From IMG/VR virus record IMGVR_UViG_2778261418_000022, positions 1 to 7,071 of that record: DNA of 7,071 bases; one strand, 5' to 3'. The translations under genes and the position numbers were made by a program. This document shows positions 1 to 7,071 of this stretch, piece by piece (positions within the stretch are counted from its first letter, which is position 1; each line of letters begins with the position of its first letter). The DNA comes from a virus (taxonomy: Duplodnaviria; Heunggongvirae; Uroviricota; Caudoviricetes). The notes beneath the pieces were generated by a model that saw only the letters and a list, made by a program, of their open reading frames with translations, was not told the DNA's origin and made no database searches.

Positions 1-2856
1 CGGATGCGCAGGATGACGCCGGACAGCACCACAGACCAGCTGCAGAACAAAACGCTCTGGTCGTCATACACCGAAATCATCGATGTGAAACAGTGCTACC
101 CGAACACGGCACTGGTCGGCGTACAGGTGGATTCGGAGCAGTTCGGCAGCCAGCAGGTGAGCCGTAATTATCATCTTCGCGGGCGCATTCTGCAGGTGCC
201 GTCGAACTATAACCCGCAGACGCGGCAATACAGCGGTATCTGGGACGGAACGTTTAAGCCAGCATACAGCAACAACATGGCCTGGTGTCTGTGGGATATG
301 CTGACCCACCCGCGCTACGGCATGGGGAAACGTCTTGGTGCGGCGGATGTGGATAAATGGGCGCTGTATGTCATCGGCCAGTACTGCGACCAGTCGGTGC
401 CGGACGGCTTTGGCGGCACGGAGCCGCGCATTACCTGTAATGCGTACCTGACCACACAGCGCAAGGCGTGGGATGTGCTCAGTGATTTCTGCTCGGCGAT
501 GCGCTGTATGCCGGTATGGAACGGGCAGACGCTGACGTTCGTGCAGGACCGACCCTCGGATAAGGTGTGGACCTATAACCGCAGTAATGTGGTGATGCCG
601 GATGATGGCGCGCCGTTCCGCTACAGCTTCAGCGCCCTGAAGGACCGCCATAATGCCGTTGAGGTGAACTGGATTGACCCGAATAACGGCTGGGAGACGG
701 CGACAGAGCTTGTGGAGGACACGCAGGCCATTGCCCGTTACGGTCGTAACGTCACGAAGATGGATGCCTTTGGCTGTACCAGCCGGGGGCAGGCACACCG
801 CGCCGGGCTGTGGCTGATTAAAACGGAGCTGCTGGAAACGCAGACCGTGGACTTCAGCGTGGGCGCAGAAGGGCTTCGCCATGTACCGGGCGATGTCATT
901 GAAATCTGTGATGATGACTATGCGGGTATCAGCACCGGCGGGCGCGTGCTGGCGGTGAACAGCCAGACGCGGACACTGACGCTCGACCGTGAAATCACGC
1001 TGCCATCCTCCGGCACCACGCTGATAAGCCTGGTTGACGGAAGTGGCAATCCGGTGAGCGTGGAGGTCCAGTCCGTCACCGACGGCGTGAAGGTGAAAGT
1101 GAGCCGTGTTCCTGACGGCGTTGCCGGATACAGCGTGTGGGGACTGAAGCTGCCGACGCTGCGCCAGCGCCTGTTCCGCTGCGTGAGTATCCGTGAGAAC
1201 GACGACGGCACGTATGCCATCACCGCCGTGCAGCATATACCGGAAAAAGAAGCCATCGTGGATAACGGGGCGCACTTTGACGGCGACCAGAGCGGCACGG
1301 TGAATGGTGTCACGCCGCCAGCGGTGCAGCACCTGACTGCCGAAGTCACCGCAGACAGCGGGGAGTATCAGGTACTGGCCCGCTGGGACACGCCGAAGGT
1401 GGTGAAGGGCGTGAGCTTCCTGCTCCGTCTGACCGTAACAGCGGATGACGGCAGTGAGCGGCTGGTCAGCACGGCCCGGACGACGGAAACCACATACCGC
1501 TTCAGGCAGCTGGCGCTGGGGAACTACAGACTGACAGTCAGGGCGGTAAATGCCTGGGGGCAGCAGGGTGATCCGGCGTCGGTATCATTCCGGATTGCCG
1601 CACCGGCAGCACCGTCGCGGATTGAGCTGACGCCGGGCTATTTTCAGATCACCGCCACGCCGCATCTTGCGGTTTACGATCCGACGGTACAGTTTGAGTT
1701 CTGGTTCTCGGAAAAGCGGATTGCGGATATCAGGCAGGTTGAAACCACAGCCCGCTATCTTGGTACGGGGCTGTACTGGATAGCTGCCAGTATCAATATC
1801 AAACCGGGCCATGATTATTACTTTTATATCCGCAGTGTGAACACCGTTGGCAAATCGGCATTCGTAGAGGCTGTTGGTCGGGCGAGCGATGATGCGGAAG
1901 GCTATCTGGATTTTTTCAAAGGTCAGATAACCGAATCCCATCTCGGCAAGGAGCTGCTGGAAAAAGTCGAGCTGACGGAAGATAACGCCAGCAAACTGGA
2001 GGAGTTTTCGAAAGAGTGGAAGGACGCCAACGATAAATGGAATGCCATGTGGGGCGTCAAAATTGAGCAGACCGAAGACGGTAAGCATTATGTCGCGGGG
2101 CTTGGCCTCAGCATGGAGGATACAGAGGAAGGCAAACTGAGCCAGTTTCTGGTTGCCGCCAATCGTATCGCGTTTATTGACCCGGCAAACGGGAATGAAA
2201 CGCCGATGTTTGTGGCGCAGGGCAATCAGATATTCATGAACGAAGTATTCCTGAAGTATCTGACGGCTCCTACCATTACCAGCGGCGGTAATCCTCCGGC
2301 ATTTTCCCTGACACCGGACGGAAAGCTGACCGCTAAAAATGCAGATATCAGTGGCAGTGTGAATGCGAACGCCGGGACGCTCAACAACGTCACGATTAAT
2401 GAGAGCTGTACTATTAAGGGGATGCTTGATGCTAACCAGGTGCGTGGTGATTTTGTAAAAACGACAGGGCATCGATTTCCGCACCCCGGAGAATACCCAC
2501 AGGGTTCACTTACCGTTCATATTAAGGACGATCATGCCTTTGACAGGCAGATTATAATTCAACCAATCATGTACGGTGCACCACCATATTTTAGTAAAAA
2601 TGATGGCGCTAATATCTACGATACCTGCAGATTAATTGTGCGCAAAAATGGCAATGTAATCTATGACAAATCCACTAGTGGTTCGAAAAGGACAACAGTC
2701 GTGTACAGCAATATCATTGATATGCCAGTGGGGGACGGAGATGTAATATTAACATTTGAAGTTCAGTCGAGCGGCAGTGGAAATCCCAGAACATGGATCA
2801 GTGATTTAATGGTCTCGGTAACGAAAAAAGCCGCATCCGGTATCAGTATCAGTTGA
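1..2856 (+). CDS. J: Tail tip host-specificity protein, lambda J family (central fibre); 5'-truncated by the window edge, about 950 codons present, stop at 2854-2856
   Basis: Continuous open frame from base 1 to the TGA at 2854-2856. Size and position directly upstream of a lom-like gene match lambda J. The region around nt 1310-1860 translates to two tandem beta-rich repeats with a fibronectin-III-like pattern (e.g. [27 protein letters not shown]). The conserved part is about 60% GC. The overlapping minus-strand ORFs are read as spurious. Confidence 0.88.
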
Positions 2857-2876
2857 AATTTTTATAACCCCAATAC

Positions 2877-2904
2877 GGGCGCCAGAAATGGCGCCTTTTT
2901 TATT
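2877..2904 (+). terminator. Rho-independent terminator candidate downstream of J
   Basis: GC stem GGCGCC (2878-2883), loop AGAAAT, stem GGCGCC (2890-2895), followed directly by TTTTTTATT (2896-2904). Confidence 0.6.
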
Positions 2905-2925
2905 GCAGAAAAGCGAGAGGTAATT

Positions 2926-3525
2926 ATGCGTAAAGTTTGTGCAGCCATTTTGTCCGCAGCCATCTGTCTGGCCGTATCCGGTGCGTCTGCATGGGCGTCT
3001 GAACATCAGTCCACACTGAGCGCAGGGTATCTTCATGCCCGTACGAACGCACCCGGCAGCGATAATCTGAACGGGATTAACGTGAAATACCGTTATGAGT
3101 TTACGGACACACTGGGGCTGGTGACGTCATTCAGCTATGCAGGAGACAAGAATCGCCAGCTTACCCGTTACAGCGATACCCGCTGGCATGAAGATTCAGT
3201 GCGTAACCGCTGGTTCAGCGTGATGGCGGGGCCCTCTGTGTGCGTGAATGAATGGTTCAGCGCGTATGCGATGGCGGGTATGGCTTACAGCCGTGTTTCG
3301 ACTTTCTCCGGAGATTATCTCCGCGTAACTGACAACAAGGGGAAAAAGCACGATGTGCTGACCGGAAGTGATGACAGTCGCCACAGCAACACGTCTCTGG
3401 CGTGGGGGGCAGGCGTGCAGTTTAACCCGACCGAATCCGTGGCCATTGATATTGCTTATGAAGGCTCCGGCAGTGGTGACTGGCGCACTGACGGTTTCAT
3501 CGTGGGTGTCGGTTATAAATTCTGA
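2926..3525 (+). CDS. lom: Outer-membrane beta-barrel protein of the Ail/Lom/OmpX family (lambda Lom-like moron), 199 aa
   Basis: ATG at 2926 preceded by GAGAGG (2915-2920). N-terminus [24 protein letters not shown] is a typical Sec signal peptide with AxA cleavage motif. Mature protein has alternating aromatic/hydrophobic beta-strand patterns and a C-terminal ...GVGYKF ending in Phe, as in outer-membrane barrels. Near-identical by recall to lambda Lom (about 206 aa) and in the same place between J and stf. Confidence 0.92.
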
Positions 3526-3551
3526 TTAGCCAGGTAACACAGTGTTATGAC

Positions 3552-3579
3552 AGCCCGCCGGTTCAGGCGGGCTTTTTTG
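3552..3579 (+). terminator. Rho-independent terminator candidate downstream of lom
   Basis: Perfect 8-bp stem AGCCCGCC (3552-3559) / GGCGGGCT (3566-3573) with loop GGTTCA, followed by TTTTTT (3574-3579). Confidence 0.7.
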
Positions 3580-3589
3580 TGGGGTGAAT

Positions 3590-5893
3590 ATGGCAGTAAA
3601 GATTTCAGGTGTACTGAAAGACGGCACAGGAAAACCGGTACAGAACTGCACAATCCAGCTGAAAGCAAAACGTAACAGCACCACGGTGGTGGTGAACACG
3701 CTGGCCTCAGAAAATCCGGATGAAGCCGGGCGTTACAGTATGGACGTTGAGTACGGTCAGTACAGCGTTATTTTGTTGGTGGAAGGGTTCCCGCCGTCAC
3801 ATGCCGGGACCATCACCGTGTATGAAGATTCTCAACCCGGTACGCTGAATGATTTTCTCGGTGCCATGACGGAGGATGATGCCCGTCCGGAGGCACTGCG
3901 CCGTTTTGAACTGATGGTGGAAGAGGTGGCGCGTAACGCGTCCGTAGTGGCACAGAACACGGCAGCCGCGAAGAAGTCAGCCAGCGATGCCAGCACATCA
4001 GCCCGTGAGGCGGCAACCCATGCAACTGATGCTGCAGACTCAGCACGCGCAGCCAGAACGTCAGCCGGACAGGCCGCGACGTCGGCTCAGGAGGCTTTTT
4101 CCAGCGCAGGAACGGCATCAGCAAAGGCCACTGAAGCATCAAAAAGTGCTGCCGCAGCAGAGTCCTCAAAAAGCGCGGCGGCCACCAGTGCCGGTGCCGC
4201 GAAAACGTCTGAAACGAATGCGGCAGCGTCACAACAATCAGCAGCCACTTCTGCATCCACCGCGACCACGAAAGCGTCAGAAGCAGCCACTTCAGCACGG
4301 AATGCGGCGGCTTCAAAAGAGGCGGCAAAATCATCAGAAACGAGTGCAGCCTTGAGCGCCAGTAGTGCAGCCTCCTCGGCAACGGCGGCAGGAAATTCCG
4401 CGAAGGCGGCAAAAACGTCCGAGACGAACGCAAGGTCTTCTGAAACAGCGGCAGCACAGAACGCCTCAGCTGCAGCAGATTCAGAAACTGCTGCAGAGAC
4501 GTCCGCCAACGCTGCGGCTACGAAGGCGACAGAGGCGGCAGACAGTGCGGCGGAGGCTGAGCGGAGCAAAAGTACAGCAGAGTCCGCGGCAACCCGAGCC
4601 GAGACAGCGGCAAAGCGGGCAGAGGATATCGCATCCGCCGTGGGGCTTGAGGATGCGAGTACAACGAAAAAGGGAATAGTACAGCTCAGCAGTGCTGCCA
4701 ACAGCACATCTGAAGCATTTGCTGCAACCCCAAAAGCCGTCAAAATCGTCATGGACGAGACGAAAACCAAAGCGCCGCTGGACAGCCCGGCATTCACCGG
4801 TACGCCAACCACACCAACCCCACCGGATGATGCGGTCGGACTGGAGATGGCGAACGCGGCGTTTGTCCGCAAACTGCTCGCTGCGCTGGTTGGCTCGTCC
4901 CCGGAAGCCCTGGACACGCTGAACGAACTGGCAGCGGCGCTGGGTAATGACCCAAACTTTGCGACGACGGTCACTAACGCACTGGCAGGTAAACAGCCGC
5001 TTAGCGATATTTTAACAGCGATTAGCAAATTAACAGTACGGGCAGATAACCTTCTGTATTTTAATACCGGAGGGAATATCGCGCTGTCTCCGTTGTCAGC
5101 AAAAGCCCGCTCACTGCTGGCGCAGTTCACATCCGAAGATATGCGGCAGGTGCTTGAAATCTCAGATAGCGTGGCATTACAAAGTAATATTTATGATCGC
5201 ACTGAAGGGAGAGGAGCATTACCGGGGACATTGGGTTTTGGAGCACTGACTTCGACGATTAAATATTTTAGCGCAAGTGATGGTCAGTCTGAGCTTGTAA
5301 CCTGGTGTATGCAGACGCCGCCAGGGCGCTACCTTGTGGAGCAGAGAACACATCCGGATTTTAATCCCATCATTCCGGATATTGGTTTTACCGGAGTGCT
5401 CGAAATTAAAATTTCTGACAGGGTATACAGTCAGGCAGAACATCAGGGCAAAAGAAAATTACTGACATTTTATGAACAGTATGGGGATGTCTATCGAACA
5501 GTTCTTGATGCAGATCCCGTAAGCCCGTCCCTGCGCCCCTGGGACTCAGGCTACATAAACAGAAGCGGGATTGCCAGTCTGCTTGGGAGCGATAGCCAGG
5601 CCCCGGAAGTCGGTAATATTATTCTTGCAGCCTATTACGGTACATCAGACAGCGATATGACCAGAACTCTGCAGAGAGGAAAGATTTATCCAGGTTCAAG
5701 GCTGGGGCATGTGGAATTCTCGGGAGGGGTGGCGACAGGCGCTGGCGTAAAAGGAATCACACCAACTTGTTATGTCAGTGGACTGTCATATTCGCTTTCC
5801 CTGCCCGGGGCATACAGAGCGTTATCTGGTTCGGGTGGTGTACTGATGGCTGACAACAACACTATTGTGGGGTTATTTGTGCGGGTACGGTAG
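3590..5893 (+). CDS. stf: Side tail fibre protein, lambda Stf-like, with conserved N-terminal and Ala-rich shaft region and a divergent AT-richer C-terminal distal domain
   Basis: ATG at 3590 gives MAVKISGVLKDGTGKPVQNCTIQLKA..., matching by recall the lambda Stf N-terminus. The track's GTG at 3584 is an in-frame upstream alternative. GGGGTG lies just upstream as a Shine-Dalgarno-like element. Single uninterrupted frame to TAG at 5891-5893, so it is not split as in laboratory lambda (orf401/orf314). Long Ala/Ser/Thr-rich shaft, then a compositionally distinct C-terminal third. Confidence 0.88.
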   Translation: MAVKISGVLKDGTGKPVQNCTIQLKAKRNSTTVVVNTLASENPDEAGRYSMDVEYGQYSVILLVEGFPPSHAGTITVYEDSQPGTLNDFLGAMTEDDARPEALRRFELMVEEVARNASVVAQNTAAAKKSASDASTSAREAATHATDAADSARAARTSAGQAATSAQEAFSSAGTASAKATEASKSAAAAESSKSAAATSAGAAKTSETNAAASQQSAATSASTATTKASEAATSARNAAASKEAAKSSETSAALSASSAASSATAAGNSAKAAKTSETNARSSETAAAQNASAAADSETAAETSANAAATKATEAADSAAEAERSKSTAESAATRAETAAKRAEDIASAVGLEDASTTKKGIVQLSSAANSTSEAFAATPKAVKIVMDETKTKAPLDSPAFTGTPTTPTPPDDAVGLEMANAAFVRKLLAALVGSSPEALDTLNELAAALGNDPNFATTVTNALAGKQPLSDILTAISKLTVRADNLLYFNTGGNIALSPLSAKARSLLAQFTSEDMRQVLEISDSVALQSNIYDRTEGRGALPGTLGFGALTSTIKYFSASDGQSELVTWCMQTPPGRYLVEQRTHPDFNPIIPDIGFTGVLEIKISDRVYSQAEHQGKRKLLTFYEQYGDVYRTVLDADPVSPSLRPWDSGYINRSGIASLLGSDSQAPEVGNIILAAYYGTSDSDMTRTLQRGKIYPGSRLGHVEFSGGVATGAGVKGITPTCYVSGLSYSLSLPGAYRALSGSGGVLMADNNTIVGLFVRVR
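3950..4640 (+). repeat. Low-complexity Ala/Ser/Thr-rich repetitive shaft-coding region inside stf, with imperfect internal direct repeats
   Basis: Translation is dominated by short degenerate units of the form SAxxAxTSA / AAKTSETNA. Near-identical DNA copies occur, e.g. gccgcgaaaacgtctgaaacgaatgc (4197-4222) versus gcggcaaaaacgtccgagacgaacgc (about 4404-4429). GCN/GCR-rich sequence gives long spurious ORFs in other frames. Confidence 0.6.
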
Positions 5894-5896
5894 CTG

Positions 5897-6478
5897 ATGA
5901 TGAAAATAAAAGATATTAAAAAGATATTCAGACTGGAAAATGGTGCTGTGGATTGTGAGGTGTTGTTTTTCGGTATGGAAGAGTATTTGCCTTACACTGC
6001 ATCGCCGGAAGACATGGATGAGACAGGGCAGCGCATCTGGAAAGAGTTACAGAGCGGCAAATGGGGCGAAATTTCCCCGTTTACCGTCACCCCTGAACTT
6101 ATCGCTGCGGCAAAGGATGCCAAAAAGTGGGAAATTGAGGCGTGGCGAACAAAACAGGAGGCGCAGCCGTTCACGTTCGAATGGAGCGGTCGTATCTGGA
6201 ACGCCGGCCCCGACTCACTGGCCCGTCTTTATCCGGTGGTAATGGCCGCAAAATCTGATACGGCACGAACCGCCCTTGCGTGGGGTGACGCTGATAATCA
6301 ACAGGTGAAACTTTCAATGCCAGAACTGGAAGAGCTGGCAGCAGCAATGGCACAGGCGCAGGTCGATCGCAACGACGAGATTTATCGTCGTCAGCGGGAG
6401 ATGAAGCAAGAGCTGAATAACCTGAATGATTTACGCTCAATCAGAGCGATGGCGATTAGCGGCAATCACGCTCGATAA
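5897..6478 (+). CDS. Putative tail fibre assembly chaperone in the tfa position, 193 aa; family not confirmed
   Basis: ATG at 5897 lies 3 nt after the stf stop (TAG CTG ATG ATG), indicating translational coupling. Its length is close to lambda Tfa (194 aa) and it occupies the position directly after stf. The sequence does not match lambda Tfa from memory, so the call rests on synteny and size; the coding call itself is stronger than the product call. Confidence 0.6.
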   Translation: MMKIKDIKKIFRLENGAVDCEVLFFGMEEYLPYTASPEDMDETGQRIWKELQSGKWGEISPFTVTPELIAAAKDAKKWEIEAWRTKQEAQPFTFEWSGRIWNAGPDSLARLYPVVMAAKSDTARTALAWGDADNQQVKLSMPELEELAAAMAQAQVDRNDEIYRRQREMKQELNNLNDLRSIRAMAISGNHAR

Positions 6479-6481
6479 ATT

Positions 6482-6507
6482 AACCCCGGTGATCATCCGG
6501 GGTTTTG
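6482..6507. terminator. Candidate bidirectional terminator between convergent genes
   Basis: Stem AACCCCGG (6482-6489) / CCGGGGTT (6497-6504) with loop TGATCAT, followed by a T-run on the + strand (6503-6506). It sits in the 35-bp gap between the tfa-position gene stop (6478) and the minus-strand gene stop (6514). Confidence 0.5.
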
Positions 6508-6513
6508 CATTCA

Positions 6514-7071
6514 TTAAAACCGCATCAACCTTTCCACCAATTGTTCTTTACGGGCAACGATCCACCCATGTTGCTCCAGATAAAATTTAAACCGTTCCAG
6601 AGTGCATACCATCGCATCGGCGGGGACTTTTTCTGTGAACTCGACCTGACCGTGTTTATCGAAGTGGATCAGTAATGCGCATCCATTATTTGGGGCGGGG
6701 GAGTTTTGTGCTGCAGGAGGACGTTTGTGGAGTTCTTCTTCCATTGCGTTAATTTTTTCAATGTAAGCTTCTTTTAGTCTGGCTGCTTTTTTGCCAGTAA
6801 ATCCCATTACGAGGAACATGAAGCCGTCTTTTGTGATCAGGTAACATCGTGATTCACGTTCTGCGCCGTTGCCAATTTCGACAGTCTGAACATCGGCCGA
6901 AAAGTTGGCTGATGTAAATTCGGGAGAGCAGTCGAGTGTGTCAATCTTAGCTAAAACGTGTTTATGTTGTTTATCGAAGTAGTCGGCAACAGCTTGAGAG
7001 GTGGTAACCAGGCGACCATCTTTGAAAAAGGCTTTTGGTGACTCGTTAGAAAAAGTTATAGCTGTATTCAT
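6514..7071 (-). CDS. Rha-family phage regulatory protein (antirepressor-like N-terminal domain) with an uncharacterised C-terminal region, 185 aa
   Basis: Complete ORF on the minus strand; the ATG is the reverse complement of 7069-7071 at the window edge, stop at 6514-6516. The N-terminal half (...GRLVTTSQAVADYFDKQHKHVLAKI...ITKDGFMFLVMGFTGKKAARLKEAYIEKINAMEEEL) fits the recalled Phage_pRha domain pattern. The C-terminal ~70 aa have no family I recognise. The promoter and any RBS lie beyond the window. Confidence 0.6.
   Translation of the reverse strand: MNTAITFSNESPKAFFKDGRLVTTSQAVADYFDKQHKHVLAKIDTLDCSPEFTSANFSADVQTVEIGNGAERESRCYLITKDGFMFLVMGFTGKKAARLKEAYIEKINAMEEELHKRPPAAQNSPAPNNGCALLIHFDKHGQVEFTEKVPADAMVCTLERFKFYLEQHGWIVARKEQLVERLMRF

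Follow-up and report, generated by a model that had tools for sequence, protein, structure and literature searches.

The tips of tail fibres determine to which strains a phage can attach, and the same holds for delivery particles derived from phages. The side tail fibre of Ur-lambda, Stf, binds OmpC; its distal part is related to T4 gp37, and it is accompanied by a chaperone of the Tfa/gp38 type. In Tfa-type systems the whole chaperone gene usually accompanies the tip. Knowledge of mosaic tail fibres and of the exchange of their tips goes back to the early 1990s, and that of DUF4376 chaperones to 2020. Here we analyse the side tail fibre gene stf, together with the small gene directly after it (the partner gene), in a 7,071-nt stretch of Caudoviricetes DNA (IMG/VR virus record IMGVR_UViG_2778261418_000022, positions 1 to 7,071), referred to throughout as the window.

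In the Alteromonas myovirus V22, the DUF4376 protein gp27 is encoded after the fibre gene gp26 and is needed for a functional fibre; it leaves that fibre on size exclusion and is not retained (PMC7289586). For V22 and the related phage A5, published AlphaFold-Multimer models show the helical bodies of the chaperone as a trimer, and its three N-terminal beta-strands lying against the fibre head (PMC7289586, PMC10579305). Fibre/DUF4376 pairs are also present in E. coli phages and prophages, namely SerU-LTIIb stf/stf2, Rac-SA53 tail3/tail4, phiP27 L56/L57, Av-05 gp76/gp77 and, as the partner relative 'ORF-191', in the P-Eib prophages; such pairs have been sequenced many times without being studied. 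As regards the exchange of tips, experiments have shown that lambda undergoes relaxed homologous recombination with the stf/tfa regions of prophages (Rac, Qin) at about 88% identity (PMC3945230), and engineered lambda Stf chimeras with foreign distal parts are functional (bioRxiv 10.1101/2022.09.30.509847).

We find that the stf of the window is a mosaic, in which a lambda-type anchor and shaft carry a head of a different family, and that the sequence varying with the head ends inside the partner gene. Our reading, which we regard as probable, is that the partner is a DUF4376 chaperone and that tips are swapped by recombination between the neck of the fibre and the body of the DUF4376 gene.

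Results

A lambda-type anchor and shaft carry an unrelated head

The reference for comparison was the intact Ur-lambda Stf (774 aa) and its Tfa, taken from a phage record. Like its lambda counterpart, the stf of the window stands after J and lom, encodes a PF08400 anchor and an Ala-rich shaft (70-95% identity) and a neck motif ending NALAGKQP, and is followed directly by a small gene. By BLASTP the two fibres are 75% identical over residues 3-524 (numbered from an in-frame GTG). The anchor is 92-95% identical to that of lambda, while the shaft is 70-92% identical to lambda and 90-100% identical to phage PhiR29_1. Strong identity to lambda stops at ...NALAGKQP (residue 472, nt 4999), is weak to about residue 524 and is not significant anywhere beyond; the blastn alignment to lambda stf terminates exactly at nt 4999. 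Unlike in lambda, the distal 295 or so residues are unrelated, and the HxH motifs (GAHAHS and similar), which number 8 in lambda Stf, number 0 here. A preliminary description of this DNA had read the fibre as lambda-like up to ...TNALAGKQP near nt 5000, with a distal part that lacks GAHAHS-type repeats and does not resemble the lambda C-terminus, and had concluded that the gene is a mosaic with a foreign distal domain. All of this is borne out by the limits of similarity, by the shift in base composition and by near-isogenic prophages with other tips, both described below.

The head, or tip, is a small family without any curated model or solved relative. When the head alone (residues 533-769) was scanned with HMMER against 1.84 billion representative proteins, only 83 clusters at 50% identity were recovered, and the match almost always extends to the C-terminal residue. 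The head of the window is 17-45% identical to other members, with which it shares the motifs Q..IYDRTEGR.A.PG.FG.G and a C-terminal ...GLFVR.. end, and it matches the C-terminal half of phrog_2636 'tail fiber protein' (E 1.8e-41). No match to Stf residues 473-767 was found in Pfam, NCBIfam or PDB sequences. At E values up to 10, Pfam likewise gives no match to residues 473-769, Peptidase_S74 included, and there is no weak S74 or Tfa signal. A fibre with a C-terminal intramolecular chaperone (Peptidase_S74) was considered and rejected, there being no such domain at the Stf C-terminus. AlphaFold2 predicts, with moderate confidence (pLDDT 69.6), a mixed alpha/beta globular domain and not a needle.

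Relatives of the tip occur on lambda-type PF08400 anchors, on PF03406 fibres and on a P2-type collar protein. Those from isolated phages (SerU-LTIIb, Rac-SA53, phiP27, pPE4 and the myoviruses Av-05 and TH18) are 32-38% identical to it, and the relatives as a whole span myoviruses (Av-05, TH18, phiP27) and lambdoid prophages. SerU-LTIIb, Rac-SA53, phiP27 and Av-05 have the same gene order. The partner body of the three temperate ones (SerU-LTIIb, Rac-SA53 and phiP27) is 82-85% identical to that of the window, as against 33% for Av-05; the P-Eib prophages were compared by their partner relative alone (ORF-191, about 36% identical). What sets the window apart from these E. coli pairs is a rare head allele joined to a full lambda-type shaft. 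A survey of 5426 complete E. coli genomes found the allele in 6 (coverage of the region at least 80%, nucleotide identity 95-96%), and among 50,697 phage records none has it at near identity.

In four RefSeq loci (L001 4611-5714, L002 4611-5714, L077 5091-6245 and L078 7091-8224), the annotation pipeline PGAP labels the stf homologue as a partial pseudogene ('missing C-terminus'), and about 1.2 kb has no annotation. Since fibre genes are marked in this way, the tip family is probably under-represented in protein databases.

The variable block begins after the neck and ends within the partner gene

Between shaft and head lies a conserved neck, about 80% identical in nucleotide sequence to fibres with other tips of the family (blastn blocks from 4655/4668 to 5131/5157 in six other loci). 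Similarity to lambda terminates within this neck, and several E. coli genomes align from nt 1 to exactly 5157 and no further. Stf residues 401-440 are 92-95% identical to DUF4376-linked fibres versus 42% to lambda, and residues 441-480 are 85-92% versus 75%. Given that residues 401-472 already belong to the DUF4376-linked allele, the junction with lambda-type sequence is graded, starting from about nt 4655-4790. Hence, the breakpoint against lambda Stf that had been expected near nt 5000 holds as the place where strong identity stops, at nt 4999, but not as a single sharp junction.

On the right, the first 140 nt or so of the partner gene are 30-76% identical in nucleotide sequence to loci with distant tips, and the DUF4376 body that follows is mostly 80-93% identical to them. 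About 1060 E. coli genomes match the queried region in this body only. Past approximately nt 6440 identity collapses, even against loci with the same tip. The right edge thus lies within the partner gene, near nt 6040 for distant tips and at 6122 for one near-isogenic relative. As delimited by these alignments, the apparent exchange block runs from about nt 5158 to 6040 and consists of the head and the first 48 or so codons of the partner gene.

A prophage at the potB site (L077) is particularly close to the window. Its Stf residues 1-480 are 100% identical, its DNA matches at 94% up to nt 5235 and again from 6122 to 6448, and its head is strongly divergent from about residue 550. This pattern is direct evidence that a cassette consisting of the head and the 5' part of the partner gene has been replaced. 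In another RefSeq locus (L078) and in further genomes, the match to the window extends as far as 5157-5243. The cassette is also portable: a further locus, L081, has the same neck, tip and partner on another N-terminal anchor and tail type. The idea of an exchanged tip-plus-chaperone cassette, as first put forward, is supported in part; the right edge of the cassette lies within the partner gene, and the whole chaperone is not included.

A segment inverted in place, as in Mu G, P1 C or e14 P, was considered as well. The window has only two weak short inverted repeats and no invertase, and the fibre operon is followed downstream by a Rha-family gene and then by host genes. In the absence of an invertase or crossover-type inverted repeats, a switch of the Mu/P1 type was rejected.

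Only the N-terminal part of the partner co-varies with the tip

Tip and partner were always adjacent in the loci examined. A DUF4376 gene of 187-192 aa lies directly after the tip in 5 of 5 phage records inspected and, in all of about 45 parsed IMG/VR loci found by way of the partner, the upstream reading frame ends in ...LF[VIM]R.... Co-variation was measured on 36 unique tip/partner pairs from related enterobacterial prophages, the fixed motif used in the first parsing of the loci having missed about 30 of 67.

Across these pairs, the Mantel correlation (rho) between tip identity and partner identity is 0.77 for partner residues 1-45, 0.39 for residues 51-170 and 0.33 for the C-terminal tail. 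Residues 51-170 average 88-93% identity, alike for tips that are less than 30% and more than 90% identical. In contrast, the N-terminus falls to 54-61% where tips are less than 45% identical. Column entropy is high over partner residues 1-50 and amounts to 1.1-1.5 bits over residues 171-193. Since the partner body stays 88-93% identical whatever the tip, the unit of exchange is not the tip plus the whole chaperone. The expectation that tip and chaperone travel together is thus right as to their adjacency, but the partner moves in part, with only its first 45 or so residues tracking the tip.

The partner belongs to the DUF4376 family and is most likely a chaperone

The partner gene starts at ATG 5897, 3 nt past the stf stop (TAG 5891-5893), as had been noted from the sequence. 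Its product matches PF14301 (DUF4376) over residues 72-175 with 56 bits against a cutoff of 25, and phrog_1141 with an E value of 7e-83. DUF4376 is the only Pfam family found at E values up to 10, Caudo_TAP (PF02413) being absent, and the best BLASTP E value against lambda Tfa is 0.21, that is, no similarity. An assignment as a Tfa/gp38 assembly protein (Caudo_TAP, PF02413) was rejected on these two grounds, and the earlier remark that the downstream gene does not look like lambda Tfa is correct. No NCBIfam model matches the partner, and the only hit among PDB sequences is an EF-hand protein (E 0.5). The family is common in E. coli, with 1795 clusters at 90% identity, most of them named 'DUF4376 domain-containing protein'.

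The family includes V22 gp27, whose role as a tail-fibre chaperone rests on experiment. An hhalign comparison of the partner-family profile with gp27 gives a probability of 91.3% (E 9.4e-7) over 147 columns at 20% identity. V22 gp26/gp27 and A5 gp8/gp9 also resemble the window in having a DUF4376 partner of the same size directly after the fibre gene. The AlphaFold2 model of the partner is confident (pLDDT 89.2), with strands at residues 4-12, 18-24 and 31-35, a helix at 42-53, and then a body of helix, hairpin, helix, hairpin and long helix; the V22 and A5 chaperones are likewise built of N-terminal beta-strands followed by a helical body with beta-hairpins. The best matches of the model among viral models are other DUF4376 proteins. 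The Alteromonas systems differ from the window in the low identity of the partner, in host and in phage type. The heads, moreover, are not detectably homologous: the tip profile against V22 gp26 yields an hhalign probability of 13.6%, which is not significant. By homology to gp27, the partner is most likely a chaperone separate from the fibre (intermolecular) that helps the head to trimerise and fold.

V22 gp26 (L079 8251-9360) does contain '...LGLGSAATKDVGTAAGNVMEVGAFGVG...', which resembles the family motif 'LELK.AATM..Q..IYDRTEGRLALPGAFGYG' (window ~5160-5240); we treat the common pattern '...AAT...G..GAFG.G' as a lead only. Two DUF4376 partners (P0154 and P0155 in alignment A2) are themselves mosaic, being of the E. 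coli-prophage type to about residue 112 and of the Av-05 type in the C-terminal half.

Could the 193-aa protein instead be a structural distal cap or adhesin that stays on the fibre tip, after the models of Mu Tfa or of gp38 in T2/S16-type fibres, where gp38 is the receptor binder? The gene occupies the position of gp38 and Tfa, and PHROGs as well as several GenBank records (stf2 of SerU-LTIIb, tail4 of Rac-SA53) say 'tail fiber protein'. The work on Alteromonas phages also proposes a 'transient cap' role (PMC10579305). However, an adhesin should vary, yet the partner body is nearly constant across heads that are less than 30% identical, and on size exclusion V22 gp27 comes apart from the functional fibre (PMC7289586). 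We therefore consider a permanent cap unlikely and retain the separate chaperone.

Base composition and the alternatives to exchange

In 200-nt windows the GC content is 62.5% at 4801-5000, 44.5% at 5001-5200 and then 44-53.5% to about nt 6000; overall, it drops from about 60% in the shaft to 49% in the tip. The preliminary description had put the fall past nt 5000 at 37-50%, and its hand count of 37% for 5401-5460 is reproduced as 36.7%. The AT-rich variable block passes the stf stop and continues for about 140 nt into the partner gene, where the GC content is 34% in codons 1-35 and 55% in codons 36-193. GC at third codon positions (GC3) takes a similar course, from 53% (shaft) through 44% (tip) to 40% (partner codons 1-35) and back up to 58% (codons 36-193). 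Because GC3 falls too, the drop reflects more than the amino-acid composition of the Ala-rich shaft.

This bears on the view that there was no recent exchange, and that old divergence and a different use of amino acids, in a globular head as opposed to an Ala-rich shaft, account for the contrast. Part of the GC fall is indeed compositional, with 68% GC at second codon positions in the shaft versus 49% in the head. Nevertheless, GC3 recovers within the partner gene, prophages that are 94% identical in nucleotide sequence on both flanks have strongly divergent heads, the same head stands on a different anchor in L081, and the lambda C-terminus, with its HxH motifs, is of another architecture. 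Old divergence without exchange is thus highly improbable.

That stf is a decaying pseudogene of a defective prophage, as the RefSeq annotation of close relatives suggests ('incomplete; missing C-terminus'), can hardly be correct: the PGAP label is present in 4 of 4 RefSeq loci inspected, and J is frameshifted in one, but the window and all four loci alike have an intact full reading frame, of 764-769 aa when counted from the in-frame GTG, the head family is conserved as protein across its 83 clusters, and the label spans only the part for which reference proteins exist.

Discussion

We return to the reading of a mosaic fibre with a DUF4376 chaperone and swapped tips. From the observations above we infer chaperone activity, a contact surface, a mechanism of recombination and a changed receptor. 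The PF08400-type anchor and the Ala-rich shaft would mount the fibre on a lambda-type J/tail tip. From the neck onward, the globular head would replace the HxH-repeat needle of lambda and bind a surface receptor, and a changed receptor specificity of the fibre is plausible from its sequence. The DUF4376 partner would aid trimerisation and folding of the head as a separate chaperone, by analogy with V22 and A5; its N-terminal beta-strands would provide the head-specific contact, with the conserved helical DUF4376 body as a common core. New tips would be acquired through homologous recombination, with the neck (4655-5157) and the DUF4376 body (6041-6440) as its two arms, and about 0.9 kb would be swapped, comprising the head and the N-terminal 48 or so codons of the chaperone.

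Such an arrangement resembles the mosaicism of tail fibres at conserved linkers in P2, Mu, P1, lambda and T4, where conserved arms surround a variable receptor-binding segment. It differs from Tfa-type systems in that the right arm is the chaperone's own body, so that only the 5' 140 nt or so go with the tip. The identities of the two arms (about 80-93%) are within the range that supports Red-type relaxed recombination (PMC3945230).

Several points weigh against this reading. There are 15 pairs with partner N-termini of at least 90% identity and tips of 36-44% identity; the link is accordingly not strict, and the co-variation of N-terminus and tip could arise from physical linkage alone. The chaperone role is drawn from a homologue of 20% identity, and in phage A5 the chaperone is dispensable, the fibre folding without it (PMC10579305). 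Finally, the reading takes for granted that the prophage is active and the fibre made.

Extending the argument, we tentatively suggest that enterobacterial DUF4376 chaperones may be two-part proteins, in which a short head-matched N-terminal beta-domain, encoded immediately beside the head, precedes a near-invariant helical body that would carry out the chaperone work common to all heads and double as the right recombination arm. A variable N-terminal end is the reverse of the polarity described for Tfa-type chaperones. If the suggestion is true, two crossovers, one each in the neck and the chaperone body, would install a pre-matched pair of head and adaptor on any shaft, a simple design rule for retargeting lambda-type particles.

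A swapped tip is ordinary phage mosaicism, and the understanding of tail-fibre evolution is unchanged by it. Modestly new are an exchange unit that ends within the chaperone gene, a head family without a curated model and pseudogene labels in RefSeq on intact fibres. The natural junctions at which such heads meet a lambda-type shaft, at the GKQP neck (left) and at approximately codon 48 of the DUF4376 gene (right), should be useful for the engineering of chimeric lambda Stf and for the annotation of host-range genes in prophages.

Layout of the window and minor observations

The window is the side tail fibre locus at the right end of a lambdoid prophage, beside yciE-yciF-yciG/trpA, and shows the J - lom - stf order of the lambda-type tail module (Table 1). 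The assignment to the right end follows from contigs encoding exactly the same 193-aa protein, in which the prophage adjoins two DUF892 genes, a KGG-family gene and the trp operon; we take the DUF892 genes and their KGG-family neighbour to be yciE, yciF and yciG. The start of stf is most likely ATG 3590, which gives 767 aa, the length also called in contigs whose protein is 99% identical; the GTG 3584 of the earlier reading-frame call is the less likely start. Lambda Stf begins MAVKIS. The hairpin after the partner gene folds at -14.3 kcal/mol (z -3.0). A tRNA scan of the window found none, and a promoter scan of the window gave no signal beyond the expectation from shuffled sequence.

Table 1. 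Features of the window and their coordinates.
Feature	Coordinates	Strand	Remarks
J, lambda-type host-specificity gene	4-2856		3' 2.85 kb
lom	2926-3525
Terminator-like hairpin and T-run	3552..3573	+	Between lom and stf; 8-bp stem, 7 GC pairs, then TTTTTTGTGG; putative
stf, side tail fibre gene	3590..5893	+	767 aa from ATG 3590; 769 aa from in-frame GTG 3584
N-terminal anchor domain, lambda type	3590..3991	+	PF08400, prophage tail fibre N-terminal; Pfam E 6e-72, residues 3-136, full-length match
Ala/Ser/Thr-rich lambda-type shaft	3992..4654	+	Degenerate internal repeats; GC 60%
Conserved neck block, presumed left homology arm	4655..5157	+	KGIVQLSSA ... GKQP ... LSAKARSLLA
Variable distal head (tip) domain	5158..5890	+	Presumed receptor-binding part; begins near QSNIYDRTEGRGALPGTLGFG motif, ends ...GLFVRVR
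Partner gene, DUF4376 family	5897..6478	+	193 aa; putative intermolecular tail-fibre chaperone
Variable AT-rich 5' part of partner gene	5897..6040	+	Codons 1 to ~48; three predicted beta-strands and helix start
Conserved DUF4376 body, presumed right homology arm	6041..6440	+	Mostly 80-93% nucleotide identity to unrelated-tip loci
Variable C-terminal tail of partner	6441..6478	+	...AMAISGNHAR; not tied to tip type
GC-rich hairpin (CCCCGG...CCGGGG), then TTTT	6482..6504	.	Likely terminator between convergent partner and Rha-like genes
Rha-family regulator gene	6514-7071	-	Convergent to fibre operon; PF09669, E 7e-26; runs off window end

The prophage ends with the Rha-family gene, beyond which lies the host DUF892 gene (presumed yciE); the likely hairpin terminator between the Rha-family gene and the fibre operon is common to the two. 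Relatives at the potB site are without the Rha-family gene, and there the partner gene ends the prophage.

In L081 (7703-9997), the shaft of the window from residue 207, the neck, the head and an identical partner follow a different N-terminus of about 200 aa. This prophage occupies the same chromosomal site, encodes a J protein of 1575 aa and is without lom. It marks a second mosaic junction, inside the Ala-rich shaft.

Many fibres of the family hold 2-4 tandem copies of the head-like module DRTxG...PG.FG.G and reach about 1100 aa; the fibre of the window has 1. Such multi-copy fibres were seen in the reading frames upstream of the partner in IMG/VR loci L006, L013, L014, L018, L027, L039-L041, L044, L047 and L050, and also in proteins P0004, P0005 and P0011. 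Among alleles 98-99% identical to the window, the differences in the head (E629G, D642N, V645T, S646N and Q671R) are grouped at residues 629-671 in ATG numbering, approximately nt 5474-5602; this patch could be a surface loop under diversifying selection.

Finally, the C-terminal 150 or so codons of J (window 2410-2782), at the receptor-binding end of the protein, are a swapped module themselves. Close relatives all match the window to nt 2409 and again from 2783, with 2410-2782 unmatched, and GC3 is 41% in this segment versus 75% in the N-terminal part of J. Among 5426 complete E. coli genomes, only 24 have this allele, for the most part with 99.8% identity.

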